Positions 17,041-24,585 of a DNA stretch of 64,000 nucleotides are shown here, piece after piece (position 1 is the stretch's first letter; every line of letters begins with the position of its first letter). The notes below the pieces were generated by a model. The model saw nothing but the letters and a program-made list of their open reading frames with translations. It had not been told where the DNA came from and did not search any database. Origin of the DNA: Anaerolineales bacterium UBA4826 (GTDB taxonomy: Bacteria; Chloroflexota; Anaerolineae; UBA4142); NCBI GenBank assembly GCA_002400365.1, contig DHFK01000087.1:9635-73634 (forward strand), given 5' to 3'. The position numbers and the translations under genes are program-made.

Positions 17041-19878
17041 TCAGGGCAGGTCGAGCGCCGGAAGCAGCACGCGGTCTTCCGCGGCGCTGGTTTTCAAGCG
17101 CACGCCGGTCGCTGGATCGTACACACCAATTTCGATTGGGTACATGCCCGGCGGCAAATCGGCGGGCAGCGTCAGCGTGTGCGCGTCGGCCATGTATTCG
17201 CCCTCGATCCAGCCGGTCGTCGGGAATTGATCGTTGCCCGGCGGCGCATCGCCAACGGCGATGACGTTGTTCTGCGCGTCGAGCAGGTGCACGAACACGG
17301 TGTACGGCGTATCCATGAGCGCGAGCGCGCGCCAGTACAAAGTCACCTGCGCGGTGGATTGTTTTGAATCTATTTGCAGATCGTAACCCAATAACTTGAT
17401 TTTCTGATCGAACGCCGCTTCCAGCGCGCGCGGAATGTTTGGCGCAGTCATCACCCGCGCGCGATTCTTTATTTCGATGCTTCCCAGGTCAACGACCGTG
17501 GCGCGGAACGGCAGCAAAGGCGTACCCAGCAGTTGATTGTTCCGCGCGACCGCGAGTTTCACCGCGTACTTGCCGTCGGCGACGTTCGCGGGGATACGCA
17601 TCGGGGACCAATCGCGCACGTACGTGTGCGGCTGCCACTGGAAGGGAGGATAGCCAACGCTGATGAGCGTATCGCGGCTAGTGATTTGTCTTCCTTCGGA
17701 ATCATCCAGCCAGATCCGCGCCATCAGATTGTCCGGCAGTTTCAGCGCGCCCGCGCGCCACAACAAGGTCAGCGGGAGCGCGTCGCCAGGTCGCGCCGGC
17801 GCGCTCGCGTCGAGCGCATAACCGACGAGAGACAACACGCCAAAGTCGGCGTCGGCGATCCGCGCGACGTTCCACGCGTCGAGCGAATAGCCGGCGAGCG
17901 ACAGCGCCAAGTACTCGGCGGCTGCGTGCGCGCCGTTCCGCGGGTCGCGGCGCGGCGCTGTAACGTCCGCCTCGAGCGTGATCTTATCGAGATCGCGCTG
18001 ACCGATCACGCCGCCGGAATTCGCGTCGTACAACGTCACGTTGACGATGTACTCGCCGGGCGTGACGCCCAACCACAGCGGCACCGCGTACGTATCAACG
18101 ATGATTTCGCCGGCGCGCCACGCGGTCGTGGGGTACGCGTCGAGCACGGGGCGGTGATCGGTTTGTCCGACGACGCGTCGATCGCGGCGTAGCACTTTGA
18201 CCGAGACCATTACGTCGCTTTCGATTTTTTGCGCGGCGAGCCAATGCAGTGTCACGCGCAGGCCGCGCCCGTTCTCCGCGTGCCAGCGACCGGGAAGCGC
18301 GTTGAGTCGCGCCGGGTCTAATTCGACCCCAAGCAGGGTGATGTCCGCGCCAAAGGACTCGCCGAGCCATTGCGCGTGCTTGGGATCGCCCATGACCGGT
18401 TGCGGGTTCACGCGGATGAGAGGACCGAGCGAACTCAGCGAGTATTTCTTCGCCGCGCCTTTCAGTTGTCGCGTGAGATAGACGACGCGGTTTTGTCTCA
18501 GCGCGTCGGCGATGGCAGCCAGGCGCGCGTCCTCTTTGTCGGCGGCGATCGTCTGGACGTCGGGGCGCAGACCTTGCGTCTCTTGAAAATAACGCAGCAG
18601 CGTCATCTCGCCCTGAATGCCGATAATCGTCGCGTTATTTTCGAGCGGCTGATTCAAGATGTCGAGACCATAGTCGTGGACGTCCCATTTGTTGGCTAGT
18701 TGGTTAGTTGGATAGTTGGCTAGCAACAGGTTAGCGGGAATGAGAAACAGGAGCCATCCAACTAAAAGGGTGAGTGGCGCAAAACGTGAAACGTAAAACG
18801 TAAAGGACTGGAGTGCGTCAATGCCTACGCTGAGGAAGAGCGCGAGCAAGAGAAACATCGTGAGAAAGTGGACTTGCACATTGGCGGTGTGATAATTGAA
18901 CGCAAAGCCGGCTTCGGCGAGCAGCGCGACGGCAAGCAACACCCATTCGCGCGGGCGGCGCAGCAGCGCGACGACGCCGAGCGCGGCGAGCGCGATGCCC
19001 GCGACAGTGAATTGCGCGTTGAATAGCGACCAATAAAAGGCGGCATCGTGTTGGACGTTAAACGGGTTGCCGAAAAAAGTAAAGTACTGTTGCGCTGTCA
19101 CCCACGCGATGAATCCTTGCAGTGTGTTTTCGTACGTGCCGTCGGCGGAGCCAACGCTGCCGCGCAAGGGCAGATATAGGTAAAGCAGCAATGGCGCAAT
19201 GAAAAGCAACGCGGCGCGCGCAAGCGTCTTGAAATCGCGGAGGATGGAGCGATCAACGAGTAAAACGTAAACCGTAATGGCAGGGTAGAGGAGCAAGATG
19301 AGCCGATGGTGAGTCAGCCCCAGCCCCATCGTGAACGCGAGCGCGTAGAACCTGCCCTGAGCGGAGCCGAAGGGGCGGTGGCGCGCGGCATCTGCGTTTC
19401 CGCGCGCGTGCTCTTCACGCCAGGCGAGCGCGAGGTAGAGCAGGATCGCGACGATCAGCATCTGCGTCGAGTACGTTTCCGCGATGACCGCTTGCGACCA
19501 AAAGGTCGGTCCGACCGCGAACGTCAGCGCGCCGATTAGCGCGGCGATGCGGTACGCGGTGAGGTGACGAATGACCAGGTACACCATTGCCACGGCGAGC
19601 GCGCCGTTCAGTGCGGAAAGCAAATTCAGCCGGAACGCGGGGGCGTTGAGCGGCACGATTAGCGTGAACAGTTTGCCGAGAAGCGCGTAAAACGGATAGC
19701 CCGTCTGGTGAATGATGCCGAGGCGCGGGACGACGTACTGAAACTCTAGCGTGTCGTCGAAGAGGAACGCCACCGAGGGCGCGAGTGTGCGCAGGTACAG
19801 CGCGCACGCGAGAAGGCAGATGAGCGCGCTGATCAGCGCGTCGCGGCGAGCGTTCCAGAGATGGGTTAGCGTTTTCAT
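17041..19878 (-). CDS. DUF2723-type polytopic membrane glycosyltransferase-like protein
   Basis: 945 aa. N-terminal DDTLEFQYVVPRLGIIHQTGYPFYALLGKLF resembles the DUF2723/TMEM260 signature. Many TM segments, then a large soluble C-terminal domain. Confidence 0.75.
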   Translation of the reverse strand: MKTLTHLWNARRDALISALICLLACALYLRTLAPSVAFLFDDTLEFQYVVPRLGIIHQTGYPFYALLGKLFTLIVPLNAPAFRLNLLSALNGALAVAMVYLVIRHLTAYRIAALIGALTFAVGPTFWSQAVIAETYSTQMLIVAILLYLALAWREEHARGNADAARHRPFGSAQGRFYALAFTMGLGLTHHRLILLLYPAITVYVLLVDRSILRDFKTLARAALLFIAPLLLYLYLPLRGSVGSADGTYENTLQGFIAWVTAQQYFTFFGNPFNVQHDAAFYWSLFNAQFTVAGIALAALGVVALLRRPREWVLLAVALLAEAGFAFNYHTANVQVHFLTMFLLLALFLSVGIDALQSFTFYVSRFAPLTLLVGWLLFLIPANLLLANYPTNQLANKWDVHDYGLDILNQPLENNATIIGIQGEMTLLRYFQETQGLRPDVQTIAADKEDARLAAIADALRQNRVVYLTRQLKGAAKKYSLSSLGPLIRVNPQPVMGDPKHAQWLGESFGADITLLGVELDPARLNALPGRWHAENGRGLRVTLHWLAAQKIESDVMVSVKVLRRDRRVVGQTDHRPVLDAYPTTAWRAGEIIVDTYAVPLWLGVTPGEYIVNVTLYDANSGGVIGQRDLDKITLEADVTAPRRDPRNGAHAAAEYLALSLAGYSLDAWNVARIADADFGVLSLVGYALDASAPARPGDALPLTLLWRAGALKLPDNLMARIWLDDSEGRQITSRDTLISVGYPPFQWQPHTYVRDWSPMRIPANVADGKYAVKLAVARNNQLLGTPLLPFRATVVDLGSIEIKNRARVMTAPNIPRALEAAFDQKIKLLGYDLQIDSKQSTAQVTLYWRALALMDTPYTVFVHLLDAQNNVIAVGDAPPGNDQFPTTGWIEGEYMADAHTLTLPADLPPGMYPIEIGVYDPATGVRLKTSAAEDRVLLPALDLP
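18691..18805. repeat. two simple-repeat patches inside the DUF2723 CDS
   Basis: GTTGGNTA x4 at 18691-18722, read as LANYPTNQLANK. AAAACGTGAAACGTAAAACGTAAAGG at 18778-18805, read as SFTFYVSRFA, uses the same ACGTAAA unit as the intergenic arrays at 40831 and 43261. Confidence 0.7.
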
Positions 19879-20036
19879 TGCGGCGAGATGATAACACAGA
19901 GTACGGAGAATCGCAAAAGTGAATGGTTTGTTGTATAATCACAGGAGAAATTCGATTCTGGAACAGCGACGCGCGGCACAACCTTGAAGCGGTGTTGGCG
20001 ACGATTTCAGAGAGGTTGCCAGACCGCGCGGAGAAA

Positions 20037-20156
20037 CGTCTTGACAATGTTGGATTAGCCACAGAGCGCACAGAGGACGCAGAGAAAAATCTGTTCTTTC
20101 CTCTGTGTTCTCTGTGTCCTCTGTGGCGGAAAGGAAAATGTAACATTGTCAAGACG
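20037..20156. repeat. 120-nt compound hairpin: 15-bp outer stem plus CACAGAG-unit inner arms
   Basis: CGTCTTGACAATGTT (20037-20051) is the perfect complement of AACATTGTCAAGACG (20142-20156). The inner arms are CCACAGAG CGCACAGAG GACGCAGAG versus CTCTGTGTT CTCTGTGTC CTCTGTGG. Confidence 0.9.
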
Positions 20157-20191
20157 TGAAAACCCTATGTCGTGACATCGAGGAGGATGTT

Positions 20192-20851
20192 ATGCTCCGC
20201 TCACTCTTTCGCTTCCTTTGGCTGAGCATCGCCGCTGCGGCAATCACCTGGTTGATCGGCTGCAGTTCCGCGCCGACGCCGACTATCGTCCCATCGCCGA
20301 CAAGCGTCGTTCTGCCGACTCCAGTGCCGAGCGCGATGCTAACCGATACGCCCACGGCGGCGCCCGCGCTCGCGCCAACACAAACGCCGACTGCCACGCC
20401 AACGGTCAAGACGACGCCCACGCGCACGCCGACGCTTGCCGCGGGCACGATGCGCATCAAACTGTTCTTCGTCGCATTGGAGGACAATGGCAAGCGCGGC
20501 AAAAAGATCGGCTGCAACGACAGCATCGTCGCGGTGGATCGCGTTATTCCCGCGACGACGGCGCCGCTGACCGCCGCGCTCAAAGAATTGTTTTCGATTA
20601 GCGAACGCACTTATGGTCCGTCGGGTCTGTACAACGCGCTGGCTCAAGCCAACTTGAAACTGGACAGCGCCGCGGTCGTCAACGGCAAAGCGACCGTCAA
20701 TATCTCCGGCGTTCTGAAACTCGGCGGCGTCTGTGACAATCCCAGAGCCGAAGCGCAGATCAAGGAACTGGTCATGCAGTTCGCGACGGTCAAACAGGCA
20801 AACATCTTCATCAACAACATCCCGATCGAAAAGGCGCTTTCCGAAAAATGA
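20192..20851 (+). CDS. GerMN-domain lipoprotein
   Basis: Lipobox LIGC after a hydrophobic N-terminus, a P/T-rich linker, then a GerMN-like domain. GAGGAGG sits 5 nt upstream of the ATG at 20192. Confidence 0.65.
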   Translation: MLRSLFRFLWLSIAAAAITWLIGCSSAPTPTIVPSPTSVVLPTPVPSAMLTDTPTAAPALAPTQTPTATPTVKTTPTRTPTLAAGTMRIKLFFVALEDNGKRGKKIGCNDSIVAVDRVIPATTAPLTAALKELFSISERTYGPSGLYNALAQANLKLDSAAVVNGKATVNISGVLKLGGVCDNPRAEAQIKELVMQFATVKQANIFINNIPIEKALSEK

Positions 20852-21492
20852 TTCTGACGCCCCTCCCCCTCGTGCGAAAAATCGAACTGGCTTTGCTCGC
20901 GCCCGAATTAGCGCGGCAGGATGTCGAAACGGGCTGCGCCGCGGCAGTGCGCTTGGATTGCGTGTCGGTGTTCGTCAAGCCGCATTATATCCAAGTCGCG
21001 CGCAAGGCGCTGAAGGATACGCACATCAAGGTCGTGTCGGTCGTCGGCTTTCCGCACGGCGGCGTGACCACGGCGACAAAAATGTACGAGACGCAAGACC
21101 TGATTCAGCGCGGCGCGGATGAACTGGCGATGGTCGTCAACCTTGGCGCGCTGCGCGATCGCGACGACTTGGCGGCGCGCAACGACATCGCCGGCGTCGT
21201 CAGGACCGCGCGGGGCAAGCCGATCACGGTGATTCTCGAAACGCCGCGGCTGACCGACGAAGAGAAAACGCGCGGCGGCAAGATCGCCGAGGCGGCCGGC
21301 GCGTCGTTCATCCAAACTGCCACCGGCTTTGCCGGCGACGCGACCGTTGCCGACGTGCGGCTGTTACGCGCCACCTGTCCAGGTCTAAAGGTGCGCGCGG
21401 CGGGCGGAATCCATTCGCCGGCAGACGCGCTGGCGCTGCTCGAAGCCGGCGCAGAACGCGTCGTTGTAAGCGCGAGCGAAAAGATTCTGTGA
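20848..21492 (+). CDS. DeoC/DERA-fold protein lacking the canonical catalytic residues
   Basis: 214 aa with clear class I aldolase DeoC-like motifs (VVGFPHGG, ADELAMVVN, VILET, FIQTATGF, VRAAGGI). The conserved Asp and three Lys positions read A94, T127, Q156 and R183. ATGA overlap with the upstream gene. Confidence 0.8.
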   Translation: MILTPLPLVRKIELALLAPELARQDVETGCAAAVRLDCVSVFVKPHYIQVARKALKDTHIKVVSVVGFPHGGVTTATKMYETQDLIQRGADELAMVVNLGALRDRDDLAARNDIAGVVRTARGKPITVILETPRLTDEEKTRGGKIAEAAGASFIQTATGFAGDATVADVRLLRATCPGLKVRAAGGIHSPADALALLEAGAERVVVSASEKIL

Positions 21493-21669: not shown

Positions 21670-21698
21670 TTGAAATCACTGGGAGAGTAGAGTATAAT
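21670..21698 (+). promoter_or_regulatory. promoter candidate TTGAAA-17-TATAAT upstream of moaC
   Basis: TTGAAA 21670-21675, 17-nt spacer, TATAAT 21693-21698. The moaC ATG is at 21735. Confidence 0.55.
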
Positions 21699-21734: not shown

Positions 21735-22223
21735 ATGACCCTCTCGCATCTCGACGAACAAGGGCGCGCGCAGATGGTGGACATCAGCGCAAAAGCCGAT
21801 ACCGAACGCGTCGCCATCGCCAAGTGCCAGGTGACGATGCAAGCCGCGACGCTCGCGCTCATCCGCGCCGGCAAGATCGAAAAAGGCGAGGTGTTCGCGG
21901 TCGCGCGCGTCGCGGGAATCATGGCGGCAAAGCGGACGCACGAACTCATTCCGCTGTGTCATCCGCTGCTCGTCACCGATGTCGCGGTTGACTTTGAAAT
22001 TTTGTCCGCCGGCGACGCGCACGCACGCGCGCGCGTCGGCATCACTGGCACGGCGAAAAACGTCGGCAAGACCGGCGTCGAGATGGAAGCGCTCGTCGCG
22101 GTGACGACCGCCGCCCTCACGATCTACGACATGGCGAAAGCAGTGGACCGCGCGATGCGTATCGAGAATGTGCGTTTGGTGTTGAAACGTGGGGGCAAGT
22201 CGGGGGAGATTCAGTTGGAGTGA
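21735..22223 (+). CDS. moaC: cyclic pyranopterin monophosphate synthase MoaC
   Basis: 162 aa. Typical MoaC sequence ([42 protein letters not shown]). Confidence 0.93.
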
Positions 22224-22248
22224 GCGTGTTGCCCCAACGGAGGTAAGC

Positions 22249-22494
22249 ATGGAGTCGGTTAAGCAAGCATTGCATAGCACAATTGAATTGCTGGGCGACG
22301 AAGAAGCGCGCCAGATTCTGGAATTCGCAAGACGACTGCGAGAAAAGGACGCCGTTTCGCCGACACTGCGACGATTGGCTAACGATCCGACATTCAGAAT
22401 TCCCTCGATGGAAAAACTTGCCTTCCGCGTCGTGCAGCCGATCGAGGGGAAAGGCATTGCAGCATCCAGACTCTTGGTGGAGGATCGGCGATGA
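22249..22494 (+). CDS. putative antitoxin partner of the PIN toxin
   Basis: 81 aa. GGAGG sits 6 nt upstream. ATGA overlap with the downstream PIN gene. No family motif I can name. Confidence 0.55.
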   Translation: MESVKQALHSTIELLGDEEARQILEFARRLREKDAVSPTLRRLANDPTFRIPSMEKLAFRVVQPIEGKGIAASRLLVEDRR

Positions 22495-22979
22495 TTCTCT
22501 ACTACCTCGATGCCAGCGCATGGGTCAAGCGCTATTACCGAGAAGCGGGAACAGATTGGGTGCAGAGTTTGTTTTCGCAGAATTCCATGATAGCTTGCGC
22601 ATCCCTGGGTCTAGTGGAAGTAACAGCGACCTTGTCGCGGAAGCGAAAAGCGGGAGAGATTCCAGCCGAACTCTTCGAGCAGAAATCGCAGGAACTCGAA
22701 GAGGATTGGAATCGCCTGATCCAAGTTCAATTCACCGCCGAGGCAGTAGACGCGGCGAGAAAGTCAGCAAGAGAACTTGCGCTCCGCGGAGCCGATGCCA
22801 TTCATCTCGCATCAGCCGTTTTGCTGAGGGGGCGGCTTGCGGAAGGCGATCAGCTGATGCTTGCCACCTCTGATAGTGAACTGAAGAAGGCGGCTCAAGC
22901 ATCTGGTTTCGCTGTGATTGACCCCGGCGAACAAGACGCGCAGTCTGCTCACAATCTACGATATGGCGAACACGGTTGA
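22491..22979 (+). CDS. vapC: PIN-domain ribonuclease toxin (VapC-like)
   Basis: Acidic PIN residues in the expected order (YLDASA, LVEV, GADAIHLA, TSDSEL). The last ~10 codons read out of frame through a moaC-derived remnant. Confidence 0.82.
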   Translation: MILYYLDASAWVKRYYREAGTDWVQSLFSQNSMIACASLGLVEVTATLSRKRKAGEIPAELFEQKSQELEEDWNRLIQVQFTAEAVDAARKSARELALRGADAIHLASAVLLRGRLAEGDQLMLATSDSELKKAAQASGFAVIDPGEQDAQSAHNLRYGEHG

Positions 22980-23511: not shown

Positions 23512-24585
23512 ATGAACACCCCTTCCAAACACATCCGCCTCACCTCCTACGCCGCGTGCGCCGGCTGAGCGTCGAAAATCGGCGCTGCCGAACTGGCGCA
23601 AGTTTTGCGCCCCCTGCGCGACAGATTTCAGCCCAAGGATTTTCCCGCGCTCCTCGTCGGTCTCGGCGTCCCGGACGATGCGGCGGTCTATCGTATCAAC
23701 GACTCGACCGCGATCATTCAGACGATGGATTTCTTTCCGCCAGTCGTGGACGACGCGTACGCGTTTGGCGCGATCGCCGCGGCGAACGCCATGAGCGACG
23801 TGTACGCCATGGGCGGCGAGGCGCTTGTCGCGCTCAACATCGCCGCGTGGCGCGACGATTTGCCGCTCGAACTGCTCAGCGATATTTTTCGCGGCGCGGC
23901 GGACAAGGTCGCGGAAGCGGGCGCGGCGATTGCCGGCGGGCACACGATCACCGACGACGAACCAAAATTCGGCTTGGCAGTCACCGGCGTCGTACACCCC
24001 GACCGCATCATCACGAAAGGCGGCGCGCGCGCCGGCGATGCGCTGGTGCTGACCAAGCCGCTCGGCAGCGGCTTGCTCACGACCGCCGGCAAGCACGGCG
24101 TCGTGTCGGACACACATTTGCAGAACGCGATCGCTTGGATGACGCGCCTGAATCGCGGCGCGGCGCAGGCGCTGCAAGCCGTCGGCGTCAAATGCGCGAC
24201 CGACATCACGGGCTATGGCTTGCTCGGTCACGCGTACGAAGTTGCGGAAGCGTCTCACGTCGCGCTGCGCTTCCACGCCGACGCGCTGCCGATTCTCGAC
24301 GGCGCGCTCGAGTACGCGCGCGAACATCAAATCCCCGGCGGCGCAGGGCGCAACAAACTGTACCTGGAAGGCAAGGTCGAGTTCGCGCGCCCGCTCGCCG
24401 ACGCGCTCTACGAGGTTTTGTTCGATCCGCAAACGTCGGGCGGATTGCTCATCGCCGTCCCCGCCGCGCAACTCGACGCGCTCACGCGCGCGCTCAGGTC
24501 GCGTGGAGTTGAACACTGGGTCGTCGGAGAGATAATAGATGAACGAGGAAAGACGAAAGAAACCACGCGCATTCTAGTCGTTTGA
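23512..24585 (+). CDS. selD: selenide, water dikinase SelD with in-frame UGA (selenocysteine) at codon 19
   Basis: The ORF track starts at 23605, but the same frame from the ATG at 23512 reads [34 protein letters not shown]. This matches the SelD N-terminal Cys/Sec-x-x-K glycine-rich loop. The TGA is at 23566-23568. The remaining 326 aa are typical SelD/AIR-synthase-like. Confidence 0.88.
23581..23611 (+). promoter_or_regulatory. candidate bacterial SECIS hairpin
   Basis: GGCGC (23581-23585) can pair with GCGCC (23607-23611), with an inner GCC/GGC helix. Alternatively GGCGCA (23595-23600) can pair with TGCGCC (23606-23611). The structure starts 13 nt after the UGA. Hand-folded only. Confidence 0.35.

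Follow-up and report, generated by a model that had tools for sequence, protein, structure and literature searches.

Why would a bacterium keep an intact gene for an aldolase-like protein whose catalytic residues have been replaced, and what could such a protein do? The question is raised by a 64,000-nucleotide stretch of Anaerolineales bacterium UBA4826 (Chloroflexota; contig DHFK01000087.1), referred to here as the window, in which a gene for a protein with the fold of deoxyribose-phosphate aldolase (DERA, the product of deoC) overlaps a lipoprotein gene upstream of it. The two genes and their junction are as follows:

20848..21492, + strand: DeoC/DERA-fold gene without the catalytic Asp-Lys-Lys set and the third conserved Lys; intact open reading frame (ORF), 214 aa plus stop
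20192..20851, + strand: GerMN lipoprotein gene, 219 aa; from its ORF, orthologue alignment, AlphaFold2 (AF2) and Foldseek
20848..20851, + strand: ATGA start/stop overlap of the two genes (ATG 20848-20850, TGA 20849-20851)

The initial annotation, made from the letters alone, had reported the same intact ORF and argued for a retained non-aldolase function rather than decay. Its conservation as a clade and a dN/dS of 0.10-0.20, both described below, support that argument. With middling confidence, we regard the product as a DERA-derived barrel that lacks the class I aldol reaction and is kept by uncultured Chloroflexota for a non-catalytic role.

The homology of the window protein to DERA is clearly far beyond chance. 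The NCBIfam profile TIGR00126, a deoC "equivalog", gives 188.2 bits (1.2e-55) against a cutoff of 117.3, and Pfam DeoC (PF01791) gives 29.9 bits against 23.8. The closest solved structures found with HMMER are all DERAs, led by 5dbu (E 1.4e-44) and followed by 6d33, 8qps, 4xbk and 3r12. The sequence blocks from which the family had first been recognised reappear in the alignments to 5dbu and 6d33, where VVGFPHG stands opposite VIGFPLG, ADELAMVVN opposite ADEIDMVIN, ITVILET opposite VKVIIE, FIQTATGF opposite YVKTSTGF/FVKTSTGF and VRAAGGI opposite VKASGG. An AF2 model of the protein, built on 63 members of the clade described below, reached a predicted local distance difference test score (pLDDT) of 92.2 and a predicted template modelling score (pTM) of 0.89. 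Foldseek superimposed this model on the 5dbu and 6d33 crystal structures with a TM score of 0.93 and a root-mean-square deviation of 1.2 Å, and its top 40 matches were DERAs throughout (TM 0.91-0.94). The modelled fold is thus an intact DERA barrel, the same (β/α)8 barrel as that of the class I DERAs (DeoC, EC 4.1.2.4; 5dbu from S. suis, 6d33 from B. halodurans BH1352, 3r12 from T. maritima and 1jcl from E. coli). Identity to the short-type DERAs is 38-43%, and the motifs GFPxG, T..K..E on α3, GADE, N98, VI.E and AxGG are common to both. The protein has no signal peptide, and an identical copy is present in three independent assemblies: GCA_002380735.1 (DFWE01000132.1), JGI 3300014686 and JGI 3300030373.

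Within this barrel, the residues on which DERA catalysis depends are replaced at the following sites:

21313..21315, + strand: Gln156 (CAA) at the Schiff-base Lys (E. coli K167, BH1352 K155); sequence and alignment
21127..21129, + strand: Ala94 (GCG) at the relay Asp (E. coli D102); sequence and alignment
21226..21228, + strand: Thr127 (ACG) at the third conserved Lys (E. coli K137, BH1352 K126); sequence and alignment
21394..21396, + strand: Arg183 (CGC) at the pKa-tuning Lys (E. coli K201, BH1352 K184); sequence and alignment
20884..20901, + strand: degraded N-terminal substrate block E13-L-A15-L-L-A18, canonically D-H-T-L-L-K; alignment to 5dbu/6d33

The residue register was counted along the BH1352 (6d33) row of the alignment; BH1352 K184 is the residue changed in PDB entry 6msw, titled "K184L mutant". 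In DERA, K167 is the Schiff-base lysine, K201 lowers the pKa of K167 and D102 is catalytically important (PMC4725968). Among 164 canonical representatives, Lys occupies the Schiff-base position and the third-Lys position (K137) in 164/164, the relay Asp is invariant, and the four positions D102/K137/K167/K201 are all invariant or nearly so. In contrast, the window protein by alignment has all four replaced: the Schiff-base Lys by Gln, its pKa-tuning Lys by Arg, the relay Asp by Ala and the third Lys by Thr. These Q/A/T/R substitutions had been read from the sequence, with the same codon positions for Gln (CAA) and Ala, and alignment to TIGR00126 and to the PDB DERAs confirms the correspondence of residues. 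The same holds for the loss of the N-terminal D-x-T-x-x-K block, where IELALLAP of the window aligns with IDHT(I/L)LKP of 5dbu/6d33.

The phosphate site is also altered. Its elements, in DERA structures the N-terminal Lys of the LLKP block, the G-G on β7 and the Gly-x-Ser on β8, are represented in the window protein by Ala18, by the retained G186/G187 and by Val206 in place of Gly206. Position 18 is Lys in 73% of canonical DERAs and in 0% of the clade, in which G206 is exchanged for V or A and position 187 is variable. Because there is no Schiff-base lysine, K201 or D102, DERA-type class I aldol chemistry is impossible for the window protein.

The variant is not confined to this genome. A protein search covering 5.8 billion proteins, clustered at 90% identity, returned about 100 clusters (P0001-P0100) at 52-100% identity to the window protein, followed by a gap down to 49% identity or less. 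In a joint alignment, all sequences above the gap are without the catalytic set and all below it keep D/K/K/K, and in a neighbour-joining (NJ) tree the sequences without the set are monophyletic. Sister to them is a small group of canonical sequences, and those of its members that carry a name come from Armatimonadota or "Firmicutes" metagenome-assembled genomes (MAGs). A paralogous origin of this sister group within Chloroflexota was considered and rejected, given the Armatimonadota/Firmicutes labels of these nearest canonical relatives and their different gene context. All clade members with an organism named by the source are Chloroflexota MAGs, including all 17 loci in GTDB species representatives, which are labelled Anaerolineae, "Chloroflexi bacterium" or, in one case, "Ca. 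Aquidulcis sp.". The initial annotation had asked whether the Q/A/T/R variant forms a conserved clade; such a clade exists, but the exact Q/A/T/R combination is not its signature.

The place of the clade within its family emerges from a profile search against 1.84 billion representatives clustered at 50% identity. At this level, the whole clade is one representative (P0097, 327 bits), and the next match scores 239 bits. Among the matches listed, D/K/K/K is kept in 144 of the 149 other representatives, which makes Lys-less DERA homologues rare; the five exceptions are two clade fragments, one chimeric sequence, one D-to-E change and one K-to-S singleton. The clade is the only sizeable Lys-less group in its neighbourhood of the DERA family. 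Two individual sequences are worth recording beside it. P0132 (468 aa) carries a degenerate, partial DERA-like N-terminal half, with GFPLG and ALRDG kept, the catalytic Asp exchanged for Thr and the Lys for Ser, fused to a complete canonical DERA domain. In P0212 (238 aa), an independent homologue of DERA, the Schiff-base Lys is exchanged for Ser (FVSASTGF), with D, K137 and K201 retained; it is a singleton representative and may be real or a sequencing error.

How the lost positions behave within the clade was followed through entropy and residue counts over 97 members, with the 164 canonical representatives as reference. Thr127 is the sole near-fixed replacement (89/97). Position 156 is occupied by Q in 45, M in 38 and K in 14 of the 97, with codons CAA/CAG, ATG and AAA/AAG in the loci, and in the NJ tree K, Q and M interchange several times inside tight sub-clades. 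This interchange implies that the amine is not required; judging by the residues found there, position 156 keeps a long, unbranched side chain with a dispensable amine. Position 183 is R in 52, K in 27 and I in 14 members, and position 94 is A, T, E, S, G, Y, V or Q, with Asp in a single member, P0087. The same release is evident over the pocket as a whole. Twenty positions that form the substrate and phosphate site in DERA structures have a mean entropy percentile of 0.18 in the canonical DERAs, where they are more conserved than the rest (Mann-Whitney p=7e-8), and of 0.59 in the clade. As judged by entropy, then, the pocket that once held substrate and phosphate has lost its special constraint.

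Conservation is instead found in three segments on the other side of the comparison:

20977..21015, + strand: K44-P-H46-Y47-I-E/Q49-x-A-R52-K53-x-L-K56, end of β2 and helix α2, clade-specific
21070..21111, + strand: helix α3, T75-A-T-K-M79-Y-E-T-Q83-D84-L-I-Q87-R88, with D84 and R88 clade-specific invariants
21148..21228, + strand: A101-L-R103-D104..D107-L108..N112-D113 (helix α4) through R122-G-x-P125-I-T127, with clade-specific invariants

R122, A76, N112, L108, D84, R88 and Y47 are invariant in the clade and hypervariable in canonical DERAs (2.9-3.4 bits); for R122, N112 and L108, an entropy of 0 in the clade compares with 3.3-3.4 bits. H46, E49, R52, K53, Q83, Q87, R103, D104, D107, P125 and R142 are near-invariant, and canonical entropy over the invariant and near-invariant positions together is 2.4-3.4 bits. 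K44 is Lys in 96% of the clade versus 12% of canonical DERAs. In the AF2 secondary structure, these residues map to the end of β2 together with α2, α3, α4 and the segment just before β5, and 18 columns are invariant across 63 aligned members. The alignments thus reveal a set of new invariant, mostly polar or charged residues on the β2 end, on helices α2-α4 and before β5. Whereas in DERA the constraint lies in the pocket, in the clade it lies on α2-α4, a signature of functional constraint that would have moved from the pocket onto a helical surface, whose clustering in space we infer.

The gene is also maintained as a whole. The DeoC-like ORF is intact in 24/24 distinct loci, and dN/dS, estimated by the Nei-Gojobori method (NG86) in the six least saturated orthologue pairs, is 0.10-0.20:

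L014/L005: dN/dS 0.156, dS 0.22
L012/L004: dN/dS 0.199, dS 0.50
L007/L026: dN/dS 0.098, dS 0.70
L022/L023: dN/dS 0.124, dS 0.82
L006/L022: dN/dS 0.126, dS 0.84
L014/L015: dN/dS 0.140, dS 0.82

The GerMN domain gives 0.10-0.24 in the same six pairs, so that the DeoC-like protein, for which this measurement had been proposed, is constrained as strongly as its neighbour or more so. Pairs that include the window sequence (ω 0.15-0.42) are unreliable because their dS of 0.83-1.42 is near saturation. The DeoC-like protein as a whole is under purifying selection, and the intact ORFs and low dN/dS together indicate that the gene is not decaying.

The upstream gene had been named a GerMN lipoprotein gene, and this identification holds. 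Its product begins with a signal peptide that by inspection carries the lipobox L-I-G-C24, an L-x-[GA]-C lipobox being likewise visible in all 20 aligned orthologues. The next 60 or so residues (about 25-85) form a linker rich in Pro and Thr, and the remainder, about 135 residues (86-219, window 20447-20848), is a GerMN domain that contains two invariant Cys. The start codon at 20192 is preceded, at a distance of 5 nt, by GAGGAGG, which resembles a Shine-Dalgarno sequence. Pfam returned nothing for the window copy at E<=0.01 (219-aa product) or at E<=10 (a longer 231-aa ORF), the only precomputed match to PF10646 being flagged "weak". PF10646 (Germane) matches 33 of 36 orthologues, with a best E of 6.6e-13, and the AF2 model of the domain (pLDDT 93-98) has B. 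subtilis GerM (6gzb/6gz8) as its top Foldseek match (E 1e-5, probability 1.0); on the orthologue matches and this structural match, the product is a GerMN lipoprotein. It shares the GerMN fold and the lipobox with single-domain GerMN lipoproteins (PF10646, GerM 6gzb) and differs from them in its long Pro/Thr-rich linker and two invariant Cys. In the survey by Rigden and Galperin (2008, PMC2732212), many single-GerMN proteins, 48 of 120, are predicted to be lipoproteins, and an association with the DeoC family is not mentioned.

The two genes are regularly found together. The ATGA overlap, first noticed in the window and present as described, is consistent with translational coupling. Of 24 distinct loci, 21 have a GerMN orthologue as the immediate upstream neighbour in the same orientation, at a stop-to-start distance of -4 to +103 nt and in one case 540 nt, and a look-up starting from the GerMN side found the pair again (L030). 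Upstream of P0103, the canonical DERA closest to the clade, there is a CBS/BON gene rather than GerMN, and a hidden Markov model of the GerMN partner detected no GerMN-DERA fusion in the 149 DERA representatives with N-terminal extensions. Other neighbours vary: downstream of the pair, 14 loci have a gene for a DUF4139/MuiA-like lipoprotein and 15 have one for a UbiE-like methyltransferase, and gyrA, Grx-TrxR, DRTGG, GH15 and TMEM260-like glycosyltransferase genes also recur near the pair. In the window, a promoter-like sigma-70 site (TTGAAA-17-TATAAT, 11/12 match, 21670-21698, + strand) upstream of moaC marks the 3' boundary of the GerMN/DeoC-like unit.

Taken together, the DeoC-like protein is most likely a non-catalytic, binding-type pseudoenzyme, with a repurposed enzyme as the main rival. 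It is an enzyme homologue without essential catalytic residues, conserved across species under purifying selection. We infer the loss of the ancestral DERA mechanism from the replaced residues; the absence of any activity is a prediction. In the mechanism proposed, the protein would act by binding rather than by chemistry, through its new conserved surface, and the barrel would serve as a homo- or hetero-oligomeric scaffold or as a regulatory subunit. It would share a transcript with the GerMN lipoprotein, the two genes forming a unit coupled translationally by the ATGA, within a cell-envelope-type gene block that includes the TMEM260-like glycosyltransferase and the DUF4139/MuiA-like lipoprotein. 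K58 and position 95 are engineered dimer-interface positions of E. coli DERA (PMC4725968). By alignment, R52/K53 on α2 and Q83-R88 on α3 match the R57/K58 and A95 regions of that enzyme, with Q87 at A95. This register serves as a lead only; on it, the conserved α2-α4 surface may be a reinforced homo- or hetero-oligomer interface.

Several points weigh against a purely binding role or a dedicated partnership with GerMN. The surface patch is drawn from secondary-structure position and sequence register, not from clustering in three dimensions. K44, on the catalytic face, might serve as a new nucleophile; T127, N98, E131 and T157 in the barrel stay conserved; and a few members (P0058, P0064 and P0073) keep K156 and K183 together with E94, so that some Schiff-base chemistry might persist there. 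The GerMN gene is absent in three loci, L018, L024 and L029; in L018 a GH15 gene abuts the DeoC-like gene, and in L029, which holds the basal member P0087, an RmlC-like cupin gene is upstream. Direct contact between GerMN and the barrel is unlikely because GerMN, as a lipoprotein domain with two invariant Cys, should lie outside the cytoplasm, while the barrel lacks a signal peptide. Finally, neighbours are alike between loci (GyrA 84-94%, DUF4139 75-87% identity). At such GyrA identities the genomes are fairly closely related, and the adjacency of the pair, which the initial annotation had treated as a linkage, may in part be inherited synteny rather than selected. However, in the window, L004 and L005 the pair persists although both flanks are replaced, and this speaks for co-transcription at the least.

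A repurposed enzyme, with new chemistry or a new substrate (for example, one without a phosphate handle) handled by K44, E13/D13, R/K183, T127 and E131, is the strongest alternative, to which we give a smaller but real chance. Strong purifying selection fits an enzyme. So do the near-fixation of T127, the continued conservation of N98, E131, T157, G186 and GFPHG, the position of K44 at the C-terminal end of β2 on the catalytic face, and H46 and Y47, clade-specific invariants that come just after β2. One would, however, expect a new active site to be more conserved than any other part of the protein, and here the pocket positions are about as variable as the average position, with positions 94, 156, 160, 183, 187, 206, 208 and 209 differing between close relatives. 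K44 is not a compensatory novelty either, because it is also present in canonical DERAs that use K167, namely the sister group P0101-P0105 and actinobacterial sequences, and there is no other conserved Lys inside the barrel.

Somewhat less probable again is a prozyme-type partner: the dead barrel would form heterodimers with an active DERA, or with some other TIM-barrel enzyme, whose gene lies elsewhere in the genome, and would regulate this enzyme or keep it stable by way of a retained dimer interface. The clade-conserved R52/K53 and Q83-R88 do align with the E. coli dimer-interface region (K58 and position 95), and the P0132 fusion shows that dead and live DERA modules can combine. Against this, the register of that interface is tentative, and the structurally closest DERAs are of the short type, which dimerise differently. 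A tblastn search that covered the 64-kb window and the 24 loci found no canonical deoC there, and the nearest canonical relatives are labelled Armatimonadota/Firmicutes rather than Chloroflexota.

The remaining explanations carry very little weight. That the protein is an ordinary deoxyribose-phosphate aldolase, as its JGI and NCBI records have it and as its TIGR00126 score (with 63/63 tested clade members at E<=1e-34) would suggest, is highly improbable, since class I aldolases need the Schiff-base lysine, here Gln, and the three other positions, replaced as well, are scarcely less constant in canonical enzymes. That it is a decaying gene or assembly artefact still open by chance would explain the joint loss of several catalytic residues and the variability of the former active site but is hardly credible for an ORF intact in all 24 distinct loci, in a family of some 100 clusters spanning 52-100% identity, with low dN/dS, 18 invariant columns, a confidently modelled fold and an identical copy in three independent assemblies.

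Precedents for a non-catalytic relative of an enzyme are available. Prozymes are dead paralogues that regulate active relatives, such as the trypanosomatid AdoMetDC prozyme and bacterial HisZ with HisG. Like the present clade, they are enzyme homologues without catalytic residues that are under selection and are thought to act by oligomerisation; unlike them, the clade is linked to a lipoprotein gene rather than to a paralogous enzyme. Perhaps the closest precedent is TgDPA of Toxoplasma gondii, a DERA-fold protein that reportedly has no DERA activity and binds actin-depolymerising factor. TgDPA is likewise a DERA-fold paralogue with a proposed non-catalytic, protein-binding role. However, it is eukaryotic and distantly related (its structures 3qyq/4eiv are weak matches to the window protein, E about 2e-6), has no GerMN context and would be an independent event. 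No account of a Lys-less bacterial DERA clade, or of GerMN associated with DeoC, came up in full-text searches of the literature. The DeoC-like clade is most likely a lineage-specific pseudoenzyme derived from DERA.

These results bear on annotation, because the defining catalytic features of the family fail and the protein is therefore not to be filed as a DERA. Source records name clade members deoxyribose-phosphate aldolase, and with every tested member also matching the TIGR00126 equivalog, the mis-annotation is systematic. As a consequence, metabolic reconstructions credit abundant uncultured Chloroflexota with a deoxyribose-catabolic step that a protein of the window type cannot perform. 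The clade also offers a clean bacterial example of a TIM-barrel enzyme turned pseudoenzyme, with K/Q/M toggling, a released pocket and a new conserved surface. The series is useful for studying how pseudoenzymes originate, and it provides enzyme engineers with a naturally "emptied" DERA scaffold. Furthermore, the tight GerMN linkage is a testable handle on the GerMN domain family, whose function is poorly understood.

The genes around the pair add some detail. In the window, a TMEM260-like (PF11028) membrane glycosyltransferase gene of 945 aa (17041-19878, - strand) is divergent from the GerMN gene; a TMEM260-like gene is near the pair also in L008, L010, L016, L026 and L027, and it is split into 561 + 383 aa in the JGI copy L001 and intact in L002, L003 and the window. 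The DUF4139/DUF4140 protein encoded after the DeoC-like gene in 14/24 loci has about 490 aa and is MuiA-like (TIGR02231, weak); its gene lies at 6786-8261 in L004 and 5764-7233 in L024 and is absent from the window. The L024 copy carries a lipobox (LTIGC), which places the dead barrel gene between two lipoprotein genes in many genomes. It is speculation that the Pro/Thr-rich linker of the GerMN lipoprotein is an O-glycosylation target. Bolder still, and in our view improbable, is a scheme in which the GerMN lipoprotein and the dead DERA barrel would together make up an envelope module of two components dedicated to each other. The cytoplasmic barrel, as a sensor or adaptor or as an enzyme using K44 chemistry on a non-phosphorylated substrate, would control, or provide for, the biogenesis, possibly the O-glycosylation, of the Pro/Thr-rich lipoproteins encoded around it (GerMN and DUF4139, beside the TMEM260-like glycosyltransferase).

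A GerMN paralogue of 364 aa, at 3265-6095 in L031, directly follows a response regulator and histidine kinase pair and has no DeoC-like neighbour, an arrangement reminiscent of actinobacterial mtrAB-lpqB. In the window, a near-perfect 120-nt hairpin (20036-20157, + strand) lies 35 nt upstream of the GerMN start codon. Its outer arms are perfect over 15 nt (CGTCTTGACAATGTT / AACATTGTCAAGACG), and its minimum free energy is -74.3 kcal/mol (z = -11.8 versus shuffles); the hairpin is unique in the window. Rfam gave only sub-threshold, miRNA-precursor-like (hairpin-type) matches to it, and it shows no evident conservation ahead of the GerMN genes of other loci.

Further downstream, between moaC and selD, a small antitoxin-like ORF overlaps a PIN-domain (VapC-like) gene (22189-22979, + strand). 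The selD gene itself (23512-24585, + strand; TIGR00476, 339 bits) is called from 23605 as 326 aa. An in-frame TGA at 23566-23568 sits at the Cys/Sec position of the SelD motif G-[C/U]-x-x-K-I, and the product is probably a selenocysteine-containing SelD truncated by gene callers.

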